A stretch of DNA of 64,000 bases from a virus: IMG/VR virus record IMGVR_UViG_3300030503_000573, positions 9,084 through 73,083 of that record. One strand, given 5' to 3'. This document shows positions 24,018-39,371 of the stretch, in pieces. How positions within the stretch are numbered: the stretch's first letter is position 1; each line of letters opens with the position of its first letter. The translations under genes and the position numbers were made by a program. A model generated the notes under the pieces. It saw only the letters and a program-made list of their open reading frames with translations, was not told where the DNA came from and searched no databases.

Positions 24018-24598
24018 ACTACGGGCGTGTGTACCGCGAGTTCATCGCCGACCGACTGGGGAAGCAGGCCCAGCTGGAGGTGTATGAGACGCATCACATC
24101 AGACCGCGCTGCCTCAAGGGAGGCGACGAGCCCAGCAACCTGATTAGGTTGAGCGCTCCAGATCACCTCTTCGCTCATCTGCTGCTCGCCCGCATACACG
24201 GAGGCGCGCTCGCGTTCTCATTCATCTGGATGCTGGGCATGCAGAAGTATGCTGGGAGGCGTTCGCGCAGGACCTATGAGCAGCTGAGGGCGCAGCACCG
24301 AGCCCATGTGAGCAGCCTCAGAAGCGGGGCCTCAGCATCTGAGGTCACCCGCCAGAGGCAGAGCGAGGCTGCCGTCAGACGCTTCAAGGACTCTGAGCAA
24401 CTAAGACGCCACATCGAGGCGCGGCGCGGGAGGCCACAGCCGCCGCGCTCAGATGCCCACAGGGAGAGCCTGAGGCGCTCAGCGGCGCTCTGGCAGTCGA
24501 AGCCGGAGGCGAAGGCCGCAGCGAGTGAGCGCGCCCGCAAGCAGTGGCAGCCTGGAGGCTGTCTGTACGAGAAGTTCAAGGGGAATAGCAACGCATGA
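24014..24598 (+). CDS. HNH homing endonuclease with NUMOD3-like tail
   Basis: HHIRPRCLKGGDEPSNLIRLSAPDHLFAHLLL; basic C-terminal repeats; overlaps the RNR start. Confidence 0.85.
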   Translation: MNYGRVYREFIADRLGKQAQLEVYETHHIRPRCLKGGDEPSNLIRLSAPDHLFAHLLLARIHGGALAFSFIWMLGMQKYAGRRSRRTYEQLRAQHRAHVSSLRSGASASEVTRQRQSEAAVRRFKDSEQLRRHIEARRGRPQPPRSDAHRESLRRSAALWQSKPEAKAAASERARKQWQPGGCLYEKFKGNSNA

Positions 24599-26580
24599 CC
24601 GAGATGTCCGCCAGGGCGAAGGCGATATTCATACGCACCTACAGCCGGCCGAAGGAGGGCGGCGGGTACGAGACCTATGAAGAAGTCATGGAGCGCGTCA
24701 CCGGCCACCAGCGCTGGCTCTGGGAGCGCTCTCTGGGCCGGGCGCTCGACCCCCGAGAGGAGGCTGAGCTGGGTGCCCTAAAGGCCCTCTTCCTGGCGCG
24801 CAAATGCATGCCAGCCGGACGCACCCTGTGGCTCGGCGGCACTGAGATAGCCCGCAGCCGGGAGATCAGCCAGTTCAACTGCTCCGGGCTCGTCGTCAAG
24901 ACTATCCATGATGTCGTGGACGTCGCGTGGCTCTTGTTAAATGGCGCGGGGGTGGGGGCCAAGCCCACGCAGGGCGTGCTGAACGGCTTCGCCAGACCCA
25001 TCGACGACGTGAGGGTGATACGGTCCGAGCGCACCGAGAAGGGCGGCGAGGAGCACAACACCGAGACCTTCGACCGCGAGACCGGGGTGTGGACCATCCG
25101 GGTCGGCGACAGCGGTGAGGCCTGGGCCAAGGCTGTGGGCAAGCTGCTGGGAGGCAAGTGGGCGGCGAGGTCTCTGGTGCTGGACTTCTCCCAGATCAGG
25201 CCAGAGGGCTCGCTGCTGGCGAGGTATGGGTGGCGCTCCTCGGGCGACTCGGTCATCTCGGTTGAGATGGTCAAGATGGCTTCCCTGCTTAGCCGCCGGG
25301 CCGGCCAGCTGCTCTCCAAGCTGGACATCGCTGACATCGTCAACCACCTCGGGGTCATCCAGACGGGCCGTCGTGGGGCCGAGATACTGCTGATGGACAG
25401 CGATGACCCCGAGGCCGACGCCTTCGCTGCCTTCAAGGCCCGCTACTGGGAGCGGCCGGAGACGCACCACAGGGCTCAGAGCAACAACTCCCTGGTGTTC
25501 TCAGACCGGCCGAGCAGGACACGGCTGCGGGAGATATTCGACGAGATGATGTCTAACGGCGGCAATGAGCCGGGCTTCATCAACGGCGAGGCCGCCCGAG
25601 CACGCGCCCCCTGGTTCTACACCGTCAATCCTTGTGCTGAGATACTGCTGGCCGACCGGGGCCTGTGCAACCTAACCGAGACCTCGGTGGCCGCCTTCGA
25701 CCGCATGGACGACCTGCTTGAGGCTCTGAGGCTGATCGCCCGGGCGAACTACAGGCAGACGCTGGTGGAACTCGACGACGGTATTCTGCAGCGCTCCTGG
25801 CACGAGAACCAGGCATTCCTGAGGCTGTGCGGGGTCTCCCTCACCGGGGTGGCCCAGCGGCCGGACCTCACGGCCCACGACCTGCGCATGATGAGAAACG
25901 CGGCTGTGAGCGGGGCCTGGGCGATGGCCGATGAGCTGGGTACCCCGCGCCCCAAGAATGTCACCTGCGTGAAGCCGTCCGGCACGCTGGGCAAGGTGAT
26001 GGACGCCGCCGAGGGGGCCCACGTGCCGCCCGGCCGCCACATCATCAACTCTGTGGTCTACGCCCGCACCGACCCGCTGGTGGGCCGGCTACGCGAGGCT
26101 GGGTATCGGGTCAGGCCACATCCGACGGCCGAGACGCAGGTGCTGGTTGCCTTCCCGGTTGAGTTCAGCGGTGGTCACTTTACGCCGGAGCCGGGACCGA
26201 CCGGCGGCACCATGTGGGTGAATCGAGAGACGGCGCTCGCCCAGCTCAGGCGGTATCGGCTGCTGCAGGAGAACTTCTCGGACCAGAATGTATCGCTCAC
26301 GGTCAGCTACACGCCCGACGAGGTCGACGGCGTGTGCGACTGGCTGTACGCAAACTGGGGCGGCTACGTGGGTGTAGCCTGGATGCTGCGGATGGACCCA
26401 GCCACGACGCCCGAGAGCGTAGGGGCCCCATACCTGCCCCAGCAGGTGGTGACGCAGGAGGCCTACGCCGAGTACATCGCCGAGCTGCGCGAAGTCGACT
26501 GGGAAGACGCGGGCGGTGCGGTCGAGGAGAATGACGCCCTCGACCCGGATTGCGAGGGCGGGGTATGCCCGGTGAGGTGA
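24595..26580 (+). CDS. nrdJ: Class II (B12-dependent) ribonucleotide reductase
   Basis: PAGRTLW, FNC, NPCAEI...CNL, VKPSGT, C-terminal CEGGVCPVR. Confidence 0.92.
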   Translation: MTEMSARAKAIFIRTYSRPKEGGGYETYEEVMERVTGHQRWLWERSLGRALDPREEAELGALKALFLARKCMPAGRTLWLGGTEIARSREISQFNCSGLVVKTIHDVVDVAWLLLNGAGVGAKPTQGVLNGFARPIDDVRVIRSERTEKGGEEHNTETFDRETGVWTIRVGDSGEAWAKAVGKLLGGKWAARSLVLDFSQIRPEGSLLARYGWRSSGDSVISVEMVKMASLLSRRAGQLLSKLDIADIVNHLGVIQTGRRGAEILLMDSDDPEADAFAAFKARYWERPETHHRAQSNNSLVFSDRPSRTRLREIFDEMMSNGGNEPGFINGEAARARAPWFYTVNPCAEILLADRGLCNLTETSVAAFDRMDDLLEALRLIARANYRQTLVELDDGILQRSWHENQAFLRLCGVSLTGVAQRPDLTAHDLRMMRNAAVSGAWAMADELGTPRPKNVTCVKPSGTLGKVMDAAEGAHVPPGRHIINSVVYARTDPLVGRLREAGYRVRPHPTAETQVLVAFPVEFSGGHFTPEPGPTGGTMWVNRETALAQLRRYRLLQENFSDQNVSLTVSYTPDEVDGVCDWLYANWGGYVGVAWMLRMDPATTPESVGAPYLPQQVVTQEAYAEYIAELREVDWEDAGGAVEENDALDPDCEGGVCPVR

Positions 26581-29091: not shown

Positions 29092-29300
29092 TGCGCAAGC
29101 CCACCACCCACCAGAGCTCCGTCATCGAGCTGCTCCGGCTCGGGCATGTCACGCCCGAGCCGCACGCCCCCCGCGCGGCGGTGGCCCACTACGAGGCCAA
29201 CCCGGCGGCGGCCGTGTGGGTGGTCGCCCGTACCCTCAGCGGTGCCAACCTCACCGAGATGTGGCGCGTCCACCCCGACGGCCGCGCGGAGCAGTTCTGA
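29091..29300 (+). CDS. Hypothetical protein
   Basis: 69 aa, coupled by TGATG overlaps. Confidence 0.5.
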   Translation: MRKPTTHQSSVIELLRLGHVTPEPHAPRAAVAHYEANPAAAVWVVARTLSGANLTEMWRVHPDGRAEQF

Positions 29301-30265
29301 TGAGCATCAGCATGAGAGGCTGGACCTACGGGGCCGAGCACGAGTTCGTGGACTGGCCACGGTCGAGGCCGCTCCCTGCGGGGTGCACCGCCCTGACGAA
29401 TGAGTACACCATCGTCAACTCGACCGGGGTGGCGACCGACCCGCACCACGACCCGGCCCGGCGCACCTACGCCTGGGGCCACGAGGTCAACACCCCGCCG
29501 ACCGACGACATCGGGGGCCAGGTCGGCATCATGATGGAGCTGCTGGAGGCGCTGCCCGAGGCCCGCGTCAACTACCGCTCTGAGCTCAACATCCACATCC
29601 GGGTGCCAGGCCTGCGAGACGACCTCGCGGCGCTGAAGCGCCTCGCCGACTACAACGGCCGCCACCTGAGGACCGCCGTCGAGCTGGTCGACCCCATGAG
29701 CCCCCCGGTGCGCTCCCTGGGCATGACCGACGACGAGTGGGAGGGCGCCAAGCGCAACTACGTGGTGCGCCGCAACTTCCAGCACCGGGTGCTGCCGCCC
29801 GACCGCACGGCCCGCCAGCTGGCGGCTGCCACCACCACTGAGTTCTTCGAGGCCGAGGTGCCGAAGGCGAGGGGCAACGGCCGCCCGATGTGGCACGCCC
29901 AGCCCCGGTGCGCGGTAAACCTGCGGCAGCTGCTGCAGACCGACACGGTGGAGTTCCGCCACTGGGCGGGGACGCTGAACGCCGGCTTGTTCCAGAACGC
30001 TGGGCTCTGGTGCATGTTGTACCTGCGAGGAGCCCTCTTCGATCCTGATACTGCGCCAACAGCTCTGTGGAATGGAATGGCGAGCAGCTTGTTAGAATTC
30101 CCACCCCAGCACCCCTACGAGCACTGGAAGGAGCGTCGTTTCCGCGCCACCACCCACGACGGCTCCAACCGCCGTGACGAGATTCTACGCAACATCGCGG
30201 CCATCGAGAGCGGCGAGTTCGACGACCTGCCCGAGTCGGTCGCACCTAGGAGGCTGCCGCTGTGA
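29300..30265 (+). CDS. Putative amidoligase (COOH-NH2 ligase, glutamate-cysteine ligase/GS fold)
   Basis: TYGAEHEF, GHEVNTPP, LNIHIRVP, AVNL, TVEFRHWAGTL motifs. Confidence 0.8.
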   Translation: MSISMRGWTYGAEHEFVDWPRSRPLPAGCTALTNEYTIVNSTGVATDPHHDPARRTYAWGHEVNTPPTDDIGGQVGIMMELLEALPEARVNYRSELNIHIRVPGLRDDLAALKRLADYNGRHLRTAVELVDPMSPPVRSLGMTDDEWEGAKRNYVVRRNFQHRVLPPDRTARQLAAATTTEFFEAEVPKARGNGRPMWHAQPRCAVNLRQLLQTDTVEFRHWAGTLNAGLFQNAGLWCMLYLRGALFDPDTAPTALWNGMASSLLEFPPQHPYEHWKERRFRATTHDGSNRRDEILRNIAAIESGEFDDLPESVAPRRLPL

Positions 30266-31110
30266 CGCGCATCGACGTAGCCGTCATCGGCGGGGGCCTG
30301 TTCGGGCGCACCATCGCGGCCGAGATGTGGGCCCAGGGACGGGAGTGTCAGGTACTCGACGACGCGCGGCCCTGGAGGGGCTCGGCCCCGGCCGCCTGCC
30401 TGATGCGGCCAAGCTGGTTCTCCAAGATGGAGAGGGGCGAGTACGTCGCCTCGATGGACCGGCTGGACCGGCTGTTCGGGGTCAAGAAGGTCAGGTTCGA
30501 GACGCCCGCAGGGCCGGCCGACCTGGACTGGGTGGACCCAGCCGTGGTGATGCGGCCGGACGCCTGTGTCATACCGGCGACGGTCACCGACATCTGGCGC
30601 GGCGAGGGCTACTGGGCGCTCAGCGTCAACACAGGACAGCCGGTCCACGCCCGCTCGGTCGTCGTGGCCACCGGCGTTTGGGTGCCGGAGCTTGTCAGGA
30701 CGCCCCACAACATCACCGCCCTCGGCGGGTGGGCCGTGACCTGGGCATGGCCCTACGAGCGCCAGCAGGGCCCGAGCCGCCTGGAGCCGTGGGCTCCCTA
30801 CAAGCAGCTCATCGGCTTCCAGCGGGGGGCTTGGGAGTGGTGGGCCGGCGACGGCACGGCGCTCCTCCCGGGATCGCTCACGCCAGAACGGCGCGACGCC
30901 TCCGAGAACCGCCTCCTGGCCTTCGGCAAGCGCCTTGGCCTAGCGGGTGTCGCCAGCATCACGGGCGGCCTCCGGCCGAAGGTTCCCGGGCTGCGCGCGC
31001 CGGCCCTCGTCGAGGAGGTCGCGCCCGGCCTGTGGATCGCGACCGGCGGCGCAAAGAACGGAACCCTTGGCGCGGCCTGGGCCTCGCTCCAGCTGAAGGA
31101 CAGGCTCTAG
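30262..31110 (+). CDS. FAD-dependent oxidoreductase/lyase (DAO/glycine oxidase-like)
   Basis: VAVIGGGLFG Rossmann motif, GSAPAAC, VVVATG, GGLRP, ATGGAKNG. Confidence 0.85.
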   Translation: MTRIDVAVIGGGLFGRTIAAEMWAQGRECQVLDDARPWRGSAPAACLMRPSWFSKMERGEYVASMDRLDRLFGVKKVRFETPAGPADLDWVDPAVVMRPDACVIPATVTDIWRGEGYWALSVNTGQPVHARSVVVATGVWVPELVRTPHNITALGGWAVTWAWPYERQQGPSRLEPWAPYKQLIGFQRGAWEWWAGDGTALLPGSLTPERRDASENRLLAFGKRLGLAGVASITGGLRPKVPGLRAPALVEEVAPGLWIATGGAKNGTLGAAWASLQLKDRL

Positions 31111-31476
31111 ATGCGCTTCGTGCTCCGCTCCAAGCTCCACAACGCCACGGTCACCGAGGCGAACCTGCTGTACGTGGGCTCGATCACCATCGACGAGCAC
31201 CTCATGGAGGTCGTCGGCCTGTGGCCCGGCGAGCGCGTGCTGGTGGTCTCCAACACGAGCGGGGCCCGCCTGGAGACCTACGTCATCACCGGCGACCGCT
31301 ACTCCGGGGCGATCTGCATGAACGGGGCCGCCGCCCACCTCATCTCGGCCGGCGAGCAGGTCATCATCATGGGCTTCGAGCTGGCCGAGCGGCCCATCAC
31401 ACCGGCCGTGGCCCTGTGCACGCCTAATAACCAGGTAGCACGCATGCTAAGCGAAATCTCAGGAGAGTTCCTATGA
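31111..31476 (+). CDS. panD: Aspartate 1-decarboxylase (pyruvoyl-dependent)
   Basis: SKLHNATVTEANLLYVG|SITID autocleavage site, GARLETYVI, NGAAAH. Confidence 0.95.
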   Translation: MRFVLRSKLHNATVTEANLLYVGSITIDEHLMEVVGLWPGERVLVVSNTSGARLETYVITGDRYSGAICMNGAAAHLISAGEQVIIMGFELAERPITPAVALCTPNNQVARMLSEISGEFL

Positions 31477-31646
31477 TCCAAGCCCTCGTCATGGCAGTGA
31501 TGCTGTGCGCGCTAGTGGTGGTCACCGCCAAGGTGCTGACCCTGCTGCTGCGCCTCGTGCTGGTGCTCGCCGGCATGGCGGTGCTGGCCGTGCTCGGGGC
31601 AGCCACATTCCTCATCACGCTCGCCGCGTCTGTTGCGAGCGCCTAG
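31473..31646 (+). CDS. Small very hydrophobic membrane protein (57 aa, not in ORF track)
   Basis: MIQALVMAVMLCALVVV...; AGGAG RBS and ATGA overlap with panD. Confidence 0.5.
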   Translation: MIQALVMAVMLCALVVVTAKVLTLLLRLVLVLAGMAVLAVLGAATFLITLAASVASA

Positions 31647-31696
31647 AGACCCGCGCGCGGCGGCTTCCGCGCACAGCAAGAAGGAGGACTACGACT

Positions 31697-31855
31697 ATGG
31701 ACAAGATCATGAGCTACCTGGGCGACGAAGGCGGTGCCAGCGCCGCTGAGTACGCCTTGATCCTGGCGCTGATCGCCCTGGTGATCATCGTCAGCGTCAC
31801 GACCCTCGGCACCAACATCAACGGTGTCTTCTCGCACGCTGCCAAGTCTATCTGA
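31697..31855 (+). CDS. flp: Flp/Tad type IVc prepilin
   Basis: MDKIMSYLGDEGG|ASAAEYALILALIALVIIVSVTTLGTN; prepilin cleavage G and EY Flp motif; AAGGAGG RBS. Confidence 0.9.
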   Translation: MDKIMSYLGDEGGASAAEYALILALIALVIIVSVTTLGTNINGVFSHAAKSI

Positions 31856-31899
31856 CGCGGCGCGGCGGCCCGGGGTGGTGAGCCCCGGGCGACTACCTT

Positions 31900-32460
31900 G
31901 TGAATCATATGGAGTTCTCAGACGTGGCCAGGGCGATGTTCTACGACAGCTATCAGGACGAAGTGAGGGACTGGATGCTCCAGACCTTCCCGCCCGAGGT
32001 CTGCCAGGACCGGGTCGAACGCGCCGACCGCCTGCTGGAGGAGGTCTTCGAGCTGCTCCAGAGCGGAGGCTACGACCCGGCGCGGGTCGCAATGATCCGC
32101 GACTACGTCTGGGGCCGACCGGTCGGCGAGCCGGCGCAGGAGGTGGGTGGTGTCGCTGTGACCCTCGCGGCCTACTGCTGGGTGCACGGCCTTGACTACG
32201 AGGCTGCTGCCAGGGCCGAGGTGGCCCGGGTGTGGACCATGATTGATGTCATCCGCAGGAAGCAGGCGGCCAAGCCCAAGGGGAGCCCGCTGCCGGTCGC
32301 GGTGGACCACCCGGCGGAGGCTCCTGTATCCAGAACAGCTGTCATGATATTTGGACAGCCTAAGCTGTACTATGAGGTCTACGAATGCGATCCTCGTGAT
32401 GGCGCGATGTGGACTGATGAGCGCGTCACGTCATGGTTTAGAGGCGAGCCGCTGCCGTGA
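31900..32460 (+). CDS. MazG-like nucleotide pyrophosphohydrolase
   Basis: YQDEVRDW...RLLEEVFEL...QEVGGVAVTL all-alpha NTP-PPase pattern. Confidence 0.75.
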   Translation: MNHMEFSDVARAMFYDSYQDEVRDWMLQTFPPEVCQDRVERADRLLEEVFELLQSGGYDPARVAMIRDYVWGRPVGEPAQEVGGVAVTLAAYCWVHGLDYEAAARAEVARVWTMIDVIRRKQAAKPKGSPLPVAVDHPAEAPVSRTAVMIFGQPKLYYEVYECDPRDGAMWTDERVTSWFRGEPLP

Positions 32461-33178: not shown

Positions 33179-33495
33179 TGGCCCACCCCTCCACCCTCAT
33201 GGCCATCGCGGCTGGCGACTACCGCCTGTTCTGGGTGCGGGTTGGCCCGACCTCGGCGCACACCGCGTGCTGCTGCCCGGCCCACGCCCTCGACAAGCTG
33301 GTGATGATCGGCGTGCTGCGCAGCGACGGCCGCCACCCGGCCGAGGGCGGCGAGATTGACGGCCGGTTCGTGCACTGGTTCTTGGCCCACCCAGAAGACC
33401 TCGACCGGCCGATGGGGCAGGGCGAGGTCGACTTCATCCAGGCCGCGTGCGAGAGCGCGGGGCTGAGCAGCATCGTGAGCGAGGCGAGGAACTAG
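33178..33495 (+). CDS. Hypothetical protein
   Basis: 105 aa, GGAGG RBS, directly before the amino acid:DNA transferase. Confidence 0.5.
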   Translation: MAHPSTLMAIAAGDYRLFWVRVGPTSAHTACCCPAHALDKLVMIGVLRSDGRHPAEGGEIDGRFVHWFLAHPEDLDRPMGQGEVDFIQAACESAGLSSIVSEARN

Positions 33496-33497
33496 CA

Positions 33498-34394
33498 ATG
33501 ATGGAAGTCGAAGACTTTGGCCGCCTGCTGATCGAGACCGGCGACCTCGACCCGGTGTACGTGGCGCTGAACCGCATGCGTTGGCCGGGCGGGTTCGCCC
33601 AGAGGGACCGCTGGCTGCAGGCGTACTGGTGCTGCTACCACGTGGGGGCCAGCTGCTGGCTCGCCGAGGTTCCGGACTTCTGGGGCTTCATGCGGCTGGC
33701 CGCCGTCAACGAGCGGCCGTCTCCCCTGGGCGGCCGGTGGCCCAGGGCGGCCGAGCGCCGCCACTGGCGGGGTCAGGCAGCCATAGACAGCGTCAACGAC
33801 CTGGAGCGCCGCTACGGCAACCCGAACGCCCCTGACAAGAGCTGGTCCATGGTGCGGTACTGCGGCTTCGACGTCGAGCGGGAGGACATCCACCAGCCCA
33901 AGGTCCCCCTCGCGCTGATTGAGGCCCGCGTCAAGGAGCACACCGGCTTCGGGCCCTGGATCGCCTTCAAGGTCGCCGACATGCTGGAGCGGTGCTGCGG
34001 GGTGCCGGTCGAGTTCGGCAACGCGCCGATGTTCTACGACAGCCCGAAGAAGGCCGCGCTGGCGCTGTTCAAGATGAGGGCCGGCCTGCCAGCCGCTGCC
34101 AAGGTCAAGGACGAGCTGGGGGCCATCTCCCAGGTCTCAGCCCACCTGCTGCGCACCATAGGCGACCTGGAGGCCCCCGGCGGGGGCCGGGCGTGCGGGC
34201 TGCCCGAGGTCGAGACCGTGCTGTGCAAGTGGGGCTCCCACCTCAGCGGCCACTATCCGCCGGGGAAGGACATCGCCGAGATTTATGAGGGGCTGTCCGA
34301 GTGGGAGACAGTCAGCCCGCTGGCCAGGAAGTTCCTCGCGGCGATGCCTGTTGACCAAGCAAAGCTGCTAGGTGCGGCCCCGGCTGCGGCCTAG
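33498..34394 (+). CDS. Amino acid:DNA transferase, aGPT-Pplase2 clade
   Basis: GDLDPVY, ERRHWRG, GFGPWIAFKVADMLER, EVETVLCKW...HYPPGKD (HhH-glycosylase-like fold). Confidence 0.85.
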   Translation: MMEVEDFGRLLIETGDLDPVYVALNRMRWPGGFAQRDRWLQAYWCCYHVGASCWLAEVPDFWGFMRLAAVNERPSPLGGRWPRAAERRHWRGQAAIDSVNDLERRYGNPNAPDKSWSMVRYCGFDVEREDIHQPKVPLALIEARVKEHTGFGPWIAFKVADMLERCCGVPVEFGNAPMFYDSPKKAALALFKMRAGLPAAAKVKDELGAISQVSAHLLRTIGDLEAPGGGRACGLPEVETVLCKWGSHLSGHYPPGKDIAEIYEGLSEWETVSPLARKFLAAMPVDQAKLLGAAPAAA

Positions 34395-34420: not shown

Positions 34421-35059
34421 ATGGGCTGGGTACTCAACATACGCGGGACCAACGGGTCAGGGAAGAGCCACCTCGTGCGCTCGATGCTGCCGACGCCTGA
34501 GTATAGGCCAAATGTTAACCTAGCCCGCTACGACTCACCGACGAAGCGCTACCCTGACCGCAAGAATGTAGTACCAGGGTATGTACTCAGTGAGCGAGAC
34601 CTCGGACTGTTTGGTGTTGTTGGCTCCTACGAGACCCCGACAGGCGGCCTCGACGGAGTGCCAACATTTGCGGCTCAGATCGCGAGCTGTGCTCAGCTGC
34701 TCAACGACAACGAGTGCTGTACAGTCCTCGCCGAGGGCGTGCTGGCCTCCACGGTCTTCGGAGCCTGGGGCGCGTTCGCCGATGACCTCTCGCGGTTATC
34801 TCGACACCGTATGGCGTTCCTCTACATGAGCACGCCGGTTGACGTATGCCTGATGCGCATCACCGAGCGCCAGATTAAGGCCGGTCGCATCAGGGATATC
34901 AACGAGCAGCTGGTGCGCGACAAGGTGCGGGCCGTCGCCGCGACCCGCGAGCGGGCGCTGGCCGCCGGCCACGCGGTGTTCGACCTGCCGTTCGGGCTGG
35001 AGCGCGTGGCGCTGACTGGCATCATGCGCGGCGACATGGAGAGCTACCGTGGGAACTAG
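34421..35059 (+). CDS. P-loop 5-hmdU DNA kinase paralogue 1
   Basis: NIRGTNGSGKS, VGSY...GGLD, AEG, CLMRITER; CATAAGGAG RBS. Confidence 0.8.
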   Translation: MGWVLNIRGTNGSGKSHLVRSMLPTPEYRPNVNLARYDSPTKRYPDRKNVVPGYVLSERDLGLFGVVGSYETPTGGLDGVPTFAAQIASCAQLLNDNECCTVLAEGVLASTVFGAWGAFADDLSRLSRHRMAFLYMSTPVDVCLMRITERQIKAGRIRDINEQLVRDKVRAVAATRERALAAGHAVFDLPFGLERVALTGIMRGDMESYRGN

Positions 35060-35678
35060 GCTGATAATCAACCTGCGTGGGCCCAACGGGGCCGGCAAGA
35101 CGACGGTGGCCCGGGGGTTCCTGGAGCACAAGACTATCGACCTGGAGCCATACAGATACATCAACTCTGAGGGTCGAAGCAGAAGCTGGCCTATAGCCCA
35201 ATGCAAGGCGCCAGGCCTCCAGCTGCCTATCTACGTGCTTGGACGCTATGATGTCCAGCAGGGCGGCTGTGACACGGAGAAGGACATGGACGCCATAGAG
35301 CGCTGCGTCCAGTGGGCCGTGGACAACCTCACCGATGGTCACATCTTCTTCGAGGGCTTCGTGGTCTCCAAGAGCGGCGGCCGGTGGCTGGAGTTCGCCG
35401 GGCGCAACGAGCGGGCTGGGAAGGGTCGCTACGTCTGGGCCTTCCTGAGGCCCAACCTCAACGAGCTGGAGGCACGCATCAAGGGCCGCAATGGCGGCAA
35501 GGAGGTCAAGCTTCCACTCCTTGACAACACGATGCGCACAGTTGACCTCATTCGCAACAAGGCAAAGGCCCTCGTCACCGACCGCCGGTTCCTGGTGGAC
35601 CTGGACTGGCAGCTCAGCGCGCCCATGGTTACCGAGCAGCTGATCCTACGCTTACAGCAGCTGGAGGCCGTCCGATGA
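35049..35678 (+). CDS. P-loop 5-hmdU DNA kinase paralogue 2
   Basis: INLRGPNGAGKTT, LGRY...GGCD, FFEG, RIKGRNG. Confidence 0.8.
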   Translation: MGTRLIINLRGPNGAGKTTVARGFLEHKTIDLEPYRYINSEGRSRSWPIAQCKAPGLQLPIYVLGRYDVQQGGCDTEKDMDAIERCVQWAVDNLTDGHIFFEGFVVSKSGGRWLEFAGRNERAGKGRYVWAFLRPNLNELEARIKGRNGGKEVKLPLLDNTMRTVDLIRNKAKALVTDRRFLVDLDWQLSAPMVTEQLILRLQQLEAVR

Positions 35679-36301
35679 CTACCCGAGTCATCGTCAACAT
35701 CAGGGGTGCCAACGCCAGCGGCAAGACGACGCTGATGCGCCGCGTGATTGGGTCTGCGCCATACGTAGACCTAGGCCAGTTTCCAGACGCCCAGGGGAAG
35801 ATGGGCTTCGTCCAAGGCCACCAGTTCTCGCTGGAGGGGTTCGAGCTGCCCTTCCTGGTCATCGGCCGGTACGATGCGTCCAAGTACTCGGGGTGCGACA
35901 AGATCAAGAGCGCTGACCAGATCGAGGGGGTGTTGCGCTGGGCCATAGACGGCGGCTTCGCCGGCCACGTCCTCTTCGAGGGCTTCCGGGTCTCCAAGAG
36001 CTGGGCCCGCTTCGCCGCCGTGCGCAACTGGTGCGTGAGCAACCATCATGCCAGCTGGGTGTGGGCCTTCCTGCGCGCCGAGCCCGAGCTGATCTTTGAG
36101 CGCTCGGCCGCCCGGCGCGAGGCCGACGCGAGGCCCATTGACAAGGAGGAGCTCGCGGCAGTGTGCCGGGTGATGGCCTCCACCTGGCGCAAGGCCAAGG
36201 TGGCGATGCCACGAGACTGCCTGGACCTGGACGCCTCGCAGCCGACCGAGGTGCTGTACGCGCAGCTGCTCGGGCGCATCAAGATGCTGGAGTCGGCGTG
36301 A
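35675..36301 (+). CDS. P-loop 5-hmdU DNA kinase paralogue 3
   Basis: NIRGANASGKTT, IGRY...SGCD, LFEG, RSAARR. Confidence 0.8.
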   Translation: MTTRVIVNIRGANASGKTTLMRRVIGSAPYVDLGQFPDAQGKMGFVQGHQFSLEGFELPFLVIGRYDASKYSGCDKIKSADQIEGVLRWAIDGGFAGHVLFEGFRVSKSWARFAAVRNWCVSNHHASWVWAFLRAEPELIFERSAARREADARPIDKEELAAVCRVMASTWRKAKVAMPRDCLDLDASQPTEVLYAQLLGRIKMLESA

Positions 36302-37290
36302 TGGACGTCGGCCCGCTGGTCGCCTGGGTGAATGAGCGCGAGGCGGTGCGGCTTAGGAAGGCTATCATTGCTGCTGGCGTTGACAGCTGGGGCCTAGAAG
36401 CCGGCTCCCTCACTCGTGATGTCTGGGGCGAGCATCCCAGAGACTACTGGCAGCTGGGTCACCTCACCGACGACCCCATCCTTCAGCAGTTCAAGTTCTG
36501 CAACGTCCGCCGCGAAGACGACCGGGTGACTGTCTGGGTTCGCGAGCACATCAGGGAGCCGTATGCCGACCAGCAGCACCTGTGGCTCATGCTGGCCATC
36601 GCGAGGACGATCAACTGGCCCCCGGCGCTGCTGGAGCTGATCAGGGGCGGAGCCGAGGGCGTGTCCTCGTTCCCCAACATGCAGGACTTCGATCCGCGCT
36701 GCATGGCCCAGGTGCTGGAGGCGCGGCGGGCGCGTGGCGAGAAGGTCGAGACCGGCGCGTACATGATCAGGGCGGAGAGCCGGAAGGACAAGCCCTGGTA
36801 CAGCTGGTCGAAGCAGCGGTATATCGCAGAGATCGTGATTGGCCATCTCTGGTACATGCGGGCCAGCTGGAAGCATGACTTTGAAAAGAAGAAGCTGACT
36901 ACGCTGGAGCGCACCTGGGAAATTTTCCAGGAATATGACGGCTGGGGCCCATTCATGGCCTTCCAGGTCATCGTCGACCTCGCACACACCCGCTACCTGC
37001 GAGACGCGCCCGACCGCTCTAGCTGGGCCGCGCTCGGGCCCGGCTCGCGCCGGGGGCTGAACCGGCTGTACGGCCGGCCGGTGACAACTGGGCTGACGCA
37101 GGCCCAGGGTCTGGAGGAGATGCGAGAGGTCCAGGCGGCGGTGAACGCGCCGGGCGTGCTGGCGCCGTGGGTCGAGAAGATCGCGCTGAGCGACATACAG
37201 AACTGCTTGTGCGAGACGGATAAATACCTCAGGGTAAGGAACGGCGAGGGTCGGCCGAGGGCCCTCTACAAGCCATGGAGTGGGTGGTGA
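36301..37290 (+). CDS. Amino acid/amine:DNA transferase, aGPT-Pplase1 clade
   Basis: TDDPILQQFKFCNVRREDDRVT, GAYMI, GPFMAFQVIVDL, GPGSRRGLNRL, DIQNCLCETDKY. Confidence 0.9.
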   Translation: MDVGPLVAWVNEREAVRLRKAIIAAGVDSWGLEAGSLTRDVWGEHPRDYWQLGHLTDDPILQQFKFCNVRREDDRVTVWVREHIREPYADQQHLWLMLAIARTINWPPALLELIRGGAEGVSSFPNMQDFDPRCMAQVLEARRARGEKVETGAYMIRAESRKDKPWYSWSKQRYIAEIVIGHLWYMRASWKHDFEKKKLTTLERTWEIFQEYDGWGPFMAFQVIVDLAHTRYLRDAPDRSSWAALGPGSRRGLNRLYGRPVTTGLTQAQGLEEMREVQAAVNAPGVLAPWVEKIALSDIQNCLCETDKYLRVRNGEGRPRALYKPWSGW

Positions 37291-37514
37291 GCATGATCAA
37301 TCGGATCAACCAGCTTATGGTGCGAACCCGATGCTTTGCTGGCCTCCACCCTCGGGTAATCTCTGGTCGAGGGATGTGGGGCGACGCTGGCACCTGCCTG
37401 GTATGCGGAGCCGACGGCTATGGCCTCAAGGGCCTTCACAACACAGACCTCGCCGATGCAAGCGAAGATGACCGAGAGCGCCTGAGGGTGCTGGACGAGC
37501 AGAGGACGGCCTGA
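37287..37514 (+). CDS. Small Cys/His-containing protein
   Basis: C..GLH...CLVC; coupled between transferase and TS. Confidence 0.45.
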   Translation: MSMINRINQLMVRTRCFAGLHPRVISGRGMWGDAGTCLVCGADGYGLKGLHNTDLADASEDDRERLRVLDEQRTA

Positions 37515-38602
37515 TGCACACCATCCACGCCCGCAACGTCAACGACGCCCTACACGCCGGCCTGATGCTGGTCCACAGCCACGGCATCCCGGAGACGAGC
37601 CGCAATGGTCCGGTCCTCCGCGTGCCCGAGCCGGTGGCCACCGTGTACGCCCGGCCGTGCGAGCGCGTGCTGATCCAGCCGTGGCGCGACGCCAACCCGT
37701 TCTTCCACCTCGTCGAGGCCTTCTGGATGCTCGCCGGGCGCGACGACCTGCGGCAGCTGACGCCCTACGTGTCCCGCATGAGGGAGTTCTCCGACGACGG
37801 CGGGGTGACGCAGCCCGGGGCGTACGGGAAGCGGTGGCGCGATCACGTCAAGAGCCCTTTCCTGGGCGGCATCGACCAGCTCAGCTGGGTAGCCGGGAGG
37901 CTTAGAGAGGACCCCAGCGACCGGCGCTGCGTCATTCAGATGTGGGACGCCAGCGTGGACATCCACAAAGCGTCCATCGGTGGCAACGACGCCCCGTGCA
38001 ACCTCACGGCCACGCCCTACGTCGCGGCCGGCGCGCTCCACCTCGCGGTGTTCTGCCGCTCCAATGACATCATCTGGGGCGCATACGGCGCCAACGCGGT
38101 GCACTTCTCGGTGCTGCTGGAGTACCTGGCGGCGCGGGTTGGGGTGCCGGTCGGGACATACACGCAGGTGAGCATCAACTACCATGCCTACCTCAGCACC
38201 TTCCCCAAGGTCATGCCGGTCGAGGCGGCGCAGCCGTACAGCGTGAGCGGATTTGACGCCCTTCAACCCATACCTATGTTTTCAGAATGGTTGGTCGGCG
38301 GCGAAGATCGGGAATGCGAGCGCATCTTCCAGGAGGACCTCAGGGTCTTCTTCGAGGAGGGCCCCTTCGCCTACGCCACCGCCGGGCGCATTCCCTTCAT
38401 GCGCCGGGTGCTGGTGCCTATGTGCCTGGCCCACCAGCACTGGCGCACGAAGAAGGGCGAGGACCGCTACCTCGGCGCGCTGGAGATTCTGCGCAGCTGC
38501 GCCGCGCCGGACTGGCGCCGGGCCGCCGAGGAGTGGGTTGGCCGCCGGTACGACAGGTGGAAGCTCGCCGCAGACGACGGAGCCCACGATGCTGAGGGAT
38601 AG
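37514..38602 (+). CDS. Thymidylate synthase homologue, probable dUMP hydroxymethylase
   Basis: SRNG, NPFFHLVEAFWMLAGR, GAYGKRWR, DAPCN, RSNDIIWGAYGANAVHF (Asn = dUMP-type). Confidence 0.88.
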   Translation: MHTIHARNVNDALHAGLMLVHSHGIPETSRNGPVLRVPEPVATVYARPCERVLIQPWRDANPFFHLVEAFWMLAGRDDLRQLTPYVSRMREFSDDGGVTQPGAYGKRWRDHVKSPFLGGIDQLSWVAGRLREDPSDRRCVIQMWDASVDIHKASIGGNDAPCNLTATPYVAAGALHLAVFCRSNDIIWGAYGANAVHFSVLLEYLAARVGVPVGTYTQVSINYHAYLSTFPKVMPVEAAQPYSVSGFDALQPIPMFSEWLVGGEDRECERIFQEDLRVFFEEGPFAYATAGRIPFMRRVLVPMCLAHQHWRTKKGEDRYLGALEILRSCAAPDWRRAAEEWVGRRYDRWKLAADDGAHDAEG

Positions 38603-38771: not shown

Positions 38772-39371
38772 ATGCCCAAGCTCTTTGACCGCGTCAGGCT
38801 CGCCCGCGAGGGGGCGGCCGTCGAGCGCGCCCACCAGCACCCCCACCTGCAGCGCTACTCGGTCGGGCACCACTCGCTCGATGTGGTCACGCTGGTGGTG
38901 CTGTGCTGGAAGCACGACCACGGCGGCGAGCTCCCCCGGGCCGAGCTGCTCGTGGCAGCGGCCTTTCACGACGTTGCCGAGCGCGTCACCGGCGACCTGC
39001 CAAGTCCCATCAAGGACCGCTGCCGCGATGCCCTGGGCGAGATCGAGAAGGAGGTGGACCGCTACCTCGGGGTGGACGTCGGGCTGCGGGAGGACGAGCA
39101 GTGGTACCTCAAGAGCTGCGACAAGCTGGAGCTGTACCTGTGGGCCCACGAGGAGGCCAGCCGGGGCAATTGCCGCTTCCTGGGCTGGTGCCGGGTGTAC
39201 GAGCAGAACTGGCAGTATGAGCCGCCGCCTGAGTCCGTCAAGCGCATCGTCGAGGCTGTCGACCACGCGGGCCACATACCTGTTCTGCCGGGCGACCCGA
39301 CCGACATGATCAGGCTCGGGCTCGCCAACATGGCCGCCGAGCAGCGCTCGGGAGTGCGCACCGATGGATGA
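38772..39371 (+). CDS. HD-domain 5'-deoxynucleotidase (YfbR-like)
   Basis: SVGHHS, FHDVAERVTGDLPSPIK, LKSCDKLE. Confidence 0.85.
   Translation: MPKLFDRVRLAREGAAVERAHQHPHLQRYSVGHHSLDVVTLVVLCWKHDHGGELPRAELLVAAAFHDVAERVTGDLPSPIKDRCRDALGEIEKEVDRYLGVDVGLREDEQWYLKSCDKLELYLWAHEEASRGNCRFLGWCRVYEQNWQYEPPPESVKRIVEAVDHAGHIPVLPGDPTDMIRLGLANMAAEQRSGVRTDG

Follow-up and report, generated by a model that had tools for sequence, protein, structure and literature searches.

A host-like aspartate decarboxylase gene within a predicted thymidine-hypermodification cluster of a tailed phage, and its possible role as a supplier of beta-alanine

What use might a phage have for an aspartate decarboxylase (PanD), and why should the gene for it lie among genes predicted to remodel thymidine in DNA? 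We address these questions for a stretch of 64,000 nucleotides (hereafter the window), which comprises bases 9084-73083 of the 73,083-base IMG/VR record IMGVR_UViG_3300030503_000573, rated 100% complete by CheckV. The window has a GC content of 67.9%, and the large terminase and portal protein among its products, together with helicases and a family-A DNA polymerase, identify its source as a tailed phage; the isolate-phage collection held no near-identical DNA. The gene in question is the following.

31111..31476 (stop codon included), plus strand: PanD, pyruvoyl-dependent L-aspartate 1-decarboxylase, 121 amino acids

The explanation that we favour, with roughly even confidence, is that PanD supplies beta-alanine, which the product of a neighbouring amidoligase gene joins to modified thymidine.

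Judging by the residues that it retains, the gene codes for an intact, canonical PanD that is predicted to be enzymatically competent. Its product, a single domain of 121 residues with no DNA-binding extension, scores 128.5 bits against the Pfam family PF02261 (Asp_decarbox; cut-off 25) over profile positions 3-114 of 115, a nearly complete match that bears out the claim of intactness made in a preliminary description of this DNA, and 89 bits against the PanD of M. tuberculosis (2c45). It aligns to the E. coli enzyme (PDB 1ppy) without a gap and with an offset of +1 up to residue 91, which places K8, H10, Y21 and G23-S24 in register with K9, H11, Y22 and G24-S25, and R53, T56-Y57 and N71-G-A-A-A in register with R54, T57-Y58 and N72-GAAA. 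The Gly-Ser self-processing site at which the pyruvoyl group forms is retained in this alignment as G23-S24. We take K9, H11, Y22, G24-S25, R54, T57, Y58 and N72 of E. coli PanD to be its catalytic, substrate-binding and self-processing residues, with the equivalent of R53 presumably serving as the binder of the beta-carboxylate. Across a 26-row PanD alignment K8, H10, Y21, G23, S24, T56, Y57, G72 and A75 are invariant, and R53 and N71 are conserved in at least 90% of the rows; the set of residues that had been listed as kept (G23|S24, K8/H10, R53, T56-Y57 and NGAAA) is confirmed by both alignments. The protein thus shares family, length, single-domain architecture, Gly-Ser site and catalytic residues with the cellular PanDs (E. 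coli 1ppy/1aw8, M. tuberculosis 2c45 and those of alphaproteobacteria), and differs from them in being borne by a phage, without panB or panC, inside a DNA-modification cluster. The lack of panB and panC, previously remarked for the window, extends to the complete 73,083-base virus record, in which neither panC (PF02569) nor panB (PF02548) found a match; the same searches match 9 and 11, respectively, of 14 control genomes.

The arrangement is also encountered in metagenomes other than the record itself. Contigs from three of the four peat metagenome runs examined bridge the junction between PanD and the lyase gene that precedes it with 0 mismatches, so that an assembly chimera can be dismissed as the source of the arrangement. 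In all four runs the contigs are identical to the window wherever they cover 29297-32460, and hold no informative variants in the phage copy; the identical PanD sequence was recovered in 4/4 of them, with the proviso that these runs possibly represent a single sampling campaign, possibly including the source sample, such that their independence is not assured. Separately, the segment 29297-32460 was listed, whole or in part, for 24 peat metagenome runs, none of them an RNA run; in 10 of the 24 at least half of the sampled words were present, and the phage seems to be widespread in the peat habitat, though the runs may share one campaign. The GC content at third codon positions of PanD (0.92) matches that of the neighbouring phage genes, and base composition does not separate it from them.

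The closest proteins to the window PanD in a collection of 5.8 billion proteins are cellular PanDs at 70-78% identity, the named ones coming from Bradyrhizobium, Afipia, Rhodoblastus, Caulobacterales, Sphingomonas, Hyphomonadaceae and Collimonas. The phylogeny against host PanDs that the preliminary description had called for was built from 111 rows (80 PanDs from genomes, 30 from other viral records and that of the window) on an alignment of 122 columns, and is good to clade level only; in it the window PanD nests inside a 15-row clade (Shimodaira-Hasegawa-like approximate likelihood-ratio support, SH-aLRT, 95) whose identified members are mostly Alphaproteobacteria. Relative to that clade every conserved site is unchanged, and the terminal branch measures 0.4 against a median of 0.19. 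The level of identity and the nesting among alphaproteobacterial PanDs point to a recent capture from an alphaproteobacterium-like host, and the closeness to housekeeping enzymes makes free L-aspartate, and not DNA, the most likely substrate still. Viral contigs, in scans that were pattern-seeded and not exhaustive, contained only three distant loci with relatives of the window PanD and no phage sister; two of the three are proviruses with panC beside panD, probably in host flank. A metagenome scan with the window PanD yielded, among the best 80 of 583 relatives, only sequences at most 74% identical and none accompanied by hypermodification genes, and neither these nor the viral contigs included a sister of the window phage. 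None of the 160 cellular PanD loci had the nearby Flp pilin gene (described below) or other nearby genes of the window as neighbours, and they give no indication of co-capture.

These data bear on the proposal that PanD is a recently acquired passenger, without adaptive role or inactive in the host, for instance through failing self-processing. We consider this improbable, given that the frame is intact with all conserved residues kept, that its third-position composition is that of the neighbouring phage genes with which it is tightly packed, and that the same sequence recurs in all four peat runs examined; the proposal draws on the singleton status of the phage, for which no PanD-bearing relative was found, on the somewhat long terminal branch and on the heterogeneous stretch of genes adjoining PanD.

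The neighbourhood of PanD comprises the following genes of the window.

29297..30265, plus strand: amidoligase-like protein, 322 amino acids, a predicted carboxylate-amine ligase of the glutamine-synthetase/gamma-glutamylcysteine-synthetase fold
30262..31110, plus strand: flavin-dependent lyase (N-alpha-GlyT oxidase, PaMx11 gp47 type), 282 amino acids; PDB 8z2o/8z79, Pfam DAO
33495..34394, plus strand: amino acid:DNA transferase (aGPT-Pplase2), probably a glycinyltransferase; Pfam ADDT, PDB 25qc and 8z2m
34421-35059, 35049-35678 and 35675-36301, plus strand: three tandem P-loop paralogues of the 5-hmdU DNA kinase
36301..37290, plus strand: 5-hmdU DNA kinase helical-domain protein (PaMx11 gp50 type); Pfam HMUDK_hel at 140 bits, 32% identity to gp50
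37514..38602, plus strand: thymidylate-synthase-like dUMP hydroxymethylase; Pfam Thymidylat_synt, 44% identity to PaMx11 gp51
38772..39371, plus strand: HD-domain phosphohydrolase (PaMx11 gp52 type); Pfam YfbR-like/HD, 40% identity to gp52

The preliminary description had held that this context points to DNA modification, and the claim stands: PanD lies within a thymidine-hypermodification cluster, and the association recurs in a second phage contig. The genes for the amidoligase and the lyase overlap by four bases, the ATG of PanD follows directly upon the TAG of the lyase with zero spacing, and its stop overlaps the ATG of the next open reading frame (ORF) by four bases. A consensus-matching scan for promoters and terminators, to which we give little weight, found no terminator-like sites on the plus strand between 27000 and 40500.

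The transferase scores 254 bits against PDB 25qc and 206 bits against 8z2m ('Glycinyltransferase'), and in a BLASTP alignment retains D24, W146, K150, E243, T244 and C247 of PaMx11 gp46 while departing from it at two sites (F173 to Y and D175 to S). In gp46 the first three of the retained residues are glycine contacts and the last three are catalytic, according to PMC11472151. The lyase matches 8z2o ('Flavin-dependent lyase') over its full length at 198 bits and is 41% identical to PaMx11 gp47; of the pocket residues enumerated in that source (PMC11472151), W51, F52, Y180, Q182, R210, R242 and K268 are retained and four are changed (R181 to K, K202 to L, N205 to S and Y244 to K), as counted on the alignments. 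Two of the three kinase paralogues match Pfam HMUDK_HMUD1, and the third has a weak AAA_33 match alone; by tblastn all three match PaMx11 gp49 at 29-32% identity. The dUMP hydroxymethylase, the kinase of 5-hydroxymethyldeoxyuridine (5-hmdU) and its helical-domain protein are thereby all accounted for, both by Pfam and by tblastn with gp49, gp50 and gp51. By homology, the cluster should follow a PaMx11-type route, predicted to run from 5-hmdU through its phosphorylated form (5-PmdU) and N-alpha-glycinyl-thymidine (N-alpha-GlyT) to 5-aminomethyl-deoxyuridine (5-NmdU). It shares with the 5-AcNmdU pathway of PaMx11 the homologues of gp46, gp47, gp49, gp50, gp51, gp52 and gp53, at 29-44% identity, and a similar arrangement of genes between the transferase and the DNA polymerase. 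It differs in that the lyase is shifted upstream to lie beside the amidoligase and PanD, in that the single kinase of PaMx11 is triplicated, and in that a predicted ATP-dependent amidoligase and PanD are present in place of the gp48 acetyltransferase: the best tblastn match to gp48 has an E-value of 0.67 over 13 residues, and PF00583, the sole GNAT family searched, found no match. In PaMx11, gp48 acetylates the amine of 5-NmdU, as stated in PMC11472151.

The composition of the cluster bears directly on a further proposal, raised in the preliminary description, namely that PanD is a pyruvoyl-dependent functional analogue of the pyridoxal phosphate (PLP) decarboxylases of phages ViI and M6, and decarboxylates aspartate attached to DNA. 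This appears very improbable to us. The transferase keeps its glycine contacts and is paired with an N-alpha-GlyT lyase, and this pairing predicts no Asp-thymidine intermediate; moreover, PanD itself, at 70-78% identity to housekeeping enzymes, has R53 and the other active-site residues unchanged, and its one domain of 121 residues bears no extension for binding DNA. Pyruvoyl decarboxylation requires a free amine for the Schiff base, and where an amino acid is tethered by its alpha-amine, as it is in N-alpha-GlyT, no such amine would be available. The proposal takes its appeal from the location of the gene in a modification cluster and from the action of the M6 and ViI PLP decarboxylases on DNA-tethered amino acids, as reported in PMC8989533 and PMC11472151.

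We turn next to the gene immediately upstream of the lyase. Its product matches Pfam Amidoligase_2 (PF12224) at 12.8 bits (E-value 0.11), below the cut-off of 22, and that family is carried by 20 of the 120 listed homologues of the protein. A PDB profile search with the amidoligase alignment gave chance-level matches only. The AlphaFold2 model (predicted local distance difference test score, pLDDT, 91.9) has as its top Foldseek matches in the PDB GshF, gamma-glutamylcysteine synthetase (GCS), glutamine synthetase, YbdK and PafA/Dop, with E-values of 1e-4 to 1e-2, probabilities of 0.9-1.0 and low template-modelling (TM) scores of 0.28-0.38; on this model the protein is predicted to adopt a glutamine-synthetase/GCS-like carboxylate-amine ligase fold. 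Amidoligases and amidotransferases are mentioned as uncharacterised co-associated genes in PMC8989533. A viral scan seeded with the amidoligase collected 46 IMG/VR loci and one isolate record, 'phage Simon', that is 47 in all (L007-L053), several of them near-duplicates or short fragments. Their amidoligases belong to the same family as that of the window (34-46% identity), and other hypermodification genes are present at 34 of the 47 loci, with the lyase at 24. The usual order in these viruses is transferase, lyase, amidoligase, small phosphatase and kinase, in a cassette that also includes the helical-domain protein and the thymidylate-synthase-like gene; at some loci radical S-adenosylmethionine (radical-SAM) and PLP enzymes take the place of the lyase. 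The commonest extra family is the low-molecular-weight phosphatase LMWPc, found in 15 of the 89 neighbouring ORFs scanned (out of 119 unlabelled ORFs); many of the cassettes have such a phosphatase after the amidoligase, whereas the window is without one. One amidoligase homologue (P0230) is itself a phosphatase-amidoligase fusion.

The second instance of PanD in such a setting is contig L062, a phage contig of 140.6 kb and 33% GC that is unrelated to the window phage. Here PanD (160.7 bits), a glutamine amidotransferase-type ORF (GATase), ADDT, the HMUD2 kinase and Amidoligase_2 (39 bits) follow one another without gaps, with HMUDK_hel, dUTPase and NT5C upstream and a thymidylate-synthase-like gene interrupted by an intein downstream. 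Two of its features have the following positions.

L062, 10352-11976: stretch in which the GATase ORF overlaps the start of ADDT
L062, 14811-16883: thymidylate-synthase-like gene, with an intein bearing an HNH endonuclease

The PanD of L062 keeps all key residues, is 39% identical to that of the window and in the PanD tree groups with PanDs of Bacillota; its branch is long and the support for this grouping is not significant. The low identity and this grouping argue for a separate capture, and we conclude that the L062 gene was probably acquired independently of the window PanD. The amidoligases of the two phages are 29% identical, and close relatives of the PanD and the amidoligase of L062 were found among viral contigs in L062 alone. 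The overlap of the amidotransferase gene with the start of the transferase gene suggests a delivery of ammonia to the transferase, and, speculatively, that 5-NmdU might be made directly in this phage.

We posit the following scheme for the supply and use of beta-alanine. PanD would self-cleave during infection to form its pyruvoyl cofactor and would convert free L-aspartate to beta-alanine, thereby enlarging a host pool that is normally small. Concurrently, going by the characterised homologues of its enzymes, the cluster would make 5-hmdU, phosphorylate it, add glycine to give N-alpha-GlyT and trim this to 5-NmdU. In the most speculative step, the ATP-dependent amidoligase would then link beta-alanine to the side chain by an amide bond. 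We favour acylation of the 5-NmdU amine, which would yield 5-(beta-alanyl-aminomethyl)-dU at the point where PaMx11 adds an acetyl group, because the amidoligase elsewhere follows a step generating an amine, be it the lyase or the M6-type pair of radical-SAM and PLP enzymes, and because PaMx11 caps the same amine with an acyl group. The opposite polarity, in which the amine of beta-alanine is joined to the carboxylate of N-alpha-GlyT, may apply where the lyase is absent. PanD would thus be a dedicated precursor-supply enzyme for DNA modification and would not itself act on DNA. To encode it would be sensible for a phage if a host beta-alanine pool of the size needed for coenzyme A (CoA) cannot serve thousands of modified bases per genome. 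A link between PanD and DNA modification, with one independent recurrence, is plausible; the fuller statement, that two unrelated phage lineages each recruited a host PanD for beta-alanine and that the amidoligase attaches this to 5-NmdU to give 5-(beta-alanyl-aminomethyl)-deoxyuridine, we put forward tentatively, with less than even confidence. There is precedent for the securing of a small-molecule precursor: in PMC13458397, Acinetobacter phage SH-Ab 15599 is described as rewiring host metabolism to supply the precursor of its thymine modification, alpha-dapT. That phage differs in up-regulating host genes while encoding no precursor enzyme, and in that its precursor is 1,3-diaminopropane, which the transferase installs directly (PMC13458397).

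The remaining rival is that PanD is an ordinary auxiliary metabolic gene, which provides beta-alanine for pantothenate and CoA or for some other need of the host, its position in the cluster being incidental; we deem this possible, though on the unlikely side. The enzyme is fully canonical and host-like, host-like genes unrelated to it, such as the Flp pilin, lie downstream, and PanD stands alone in most other viral records that have it. A viral scan seeded with PanD gathered 28 IMG/VR loci and two isolates, that is 30 other records, of which L062 alone has HMUDK_hel and Amidoligase_2. Among the stand-alone cases are Achromobacter phage 2-1 (panD) and Rhodococcus phage Jace (gp87), whose proteins are annotated as aspartate decarboxylases and, like that of the window, belong to phages without panB and panC; they differ from it in being only 32-36% identical to it, in belonging to separate viral clades and in having no hypermodification genes in their records. 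A strong panC match occurs in two of the 30 records (three exceed the family cut-off), both of them proviruses in which it likely lies in host flank. Against this rival stands the consideration that, without panB and panC, additional beta-alanine would aid CoA synthesis only if PanD were the bottleneck in the host. It also has to attribute to chance the presence of PanD in a hypermodification cluster beside an amidoligase in two unrelated phages. Hypermodification clusters are found in about 1 in 2000 phages, according to PMC8989533, and their occurrence in one of the 30 other PanD records (the window being excluded as it was chosen for the feature) would have a P of roughly 0.01-0.02, a figure which is rough arithmetic on a pattern-limited scan and leaves the position of PanD inside the cluster uncounted. 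Further, genes of the modification cluster are absent within 4-8 kb of all 160 PanD loci examined from cellular genomes or metagenomes.

Several observations weigh against a role of PanD in DNA modification. The preliminary description had held that homologues occurring mainly in phages without modification genes would speak against the link, and this is what was found: 29 of the 30 other viral records lack HMUDK_hel as well as Amidoligase_2, and these PanDs mostly sit instead among genes for ribonucleotide reductase (RNR), DNA polymerase A, 5'-3' exonuclease, ThyX, PP-loop ATPase and radical-SAM proteins (66 of the 184 ORFs neighbouring stand-alone viral PanDs, at L054-L078, L001 and L002, were scanned). 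Phage PanD in general, then, is not a modification gene, and the two embedded cases alone point that way; both the window phage and L062 are singletons, for which no close relatives with PanD were found. Conversely, PanD occurs nowhere in the 47 other amidoligase-bearing viral records (0/47), which sets their cassettes apart from the window, and is not required by the amidoligase module. Nor do the two PanD-linked amidoligases have specificity residues in common beyond background (six shared-rare columns, where the other rows average 4.7 and reach at most 13). Among the 34 long PanD proteins the fusion partners are RNase H, panB/panC, NadB/NadC-like and further domains, and in no case ADDT, Amidoligase_2 or a kinase. 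Finally, an ORF for a membrane protein of 57 residues, the Flp pilin, a His-Me endonuclease-like ORF and ORFs of unknown function lie in the 2.4 kb that separate PanD from the transferase, and the site of PanD could be a spot permissive for insertion.

With its thymidine hypermodified, the DNA of a phage is protected from restriction enzymes; such modifications also provide new enzymes and new DNA chemistry. PanD belongs to a known family, and phage isolates with an annotated PanD exist already; the system in which it is found here is the PaMx11 pathway with the acetyl-CoA cap replaced by a predicted ATP-dependent ligase and a precursor-making enzyme. In full-text searches of the literature no paper was found that connects these pathways with PanD, with aspartate decarboxylase or with beta-alanine, nor did such a link appear in what was available of the main texts of PMC8989533, PMC5889632 and PMC13458397; supplementary files, among them the contig tables of PMC8989533, may list co-associations of this kind. 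The placement of PanD between the lyase and the remainder of the cluster, in an association seen twice independently, furnishes a concrete and cheaply testable guess at the substrate of the amidoligase. Were the proposal true, it would mean an undescribed DNA base, the first substrate for a widespread and uncharacterised viral amidoligase cassette, and a phage that itself encodes an enzyme making the small molecule needed to modify its DNA; it would also caution against attaching the generic label of auxiliary metabolic gene to each phage-borne biosynthetic gene.

A few further observations concern PanDs elsewhere and other genes of the window. The stand-alone viral PanDs form at least three virus-only clades in the PanD tree. 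In Achromobacter phage 2-1 (L001, 7552-9384) panD has an RNaseH gene two genes ahead of it and a DNA polymerase gene directly after it, and 6 of the 34 long PanDs (P0243-P0250) are PanD-RNase H fusions, one of them from a named Methanomassiliicoccales archaeon. One partial PanD match was accompanied by a glutamine-synthetase domain, on an 8-kb contig. Two genes after PanD the window encodes a Flp/Fap pilin of 52 amino acids (31697-31855, plus strand; PF04964, 49 bits); a pilin of the Tad pilus is unusual in a phage and might be a clue to the host or to some interference with the pili of that host. The only matches of the ORF at 31900-32460 are to PHROGs of unknown function. An ORF of 661 amino acids (24595-26580, plus strand), which heads the DNA-metabolism block, has only sub-threshold matches to class II RNR domains (21.7 and 17.3 bits), and may code for a divergent B12-dependent RNR.

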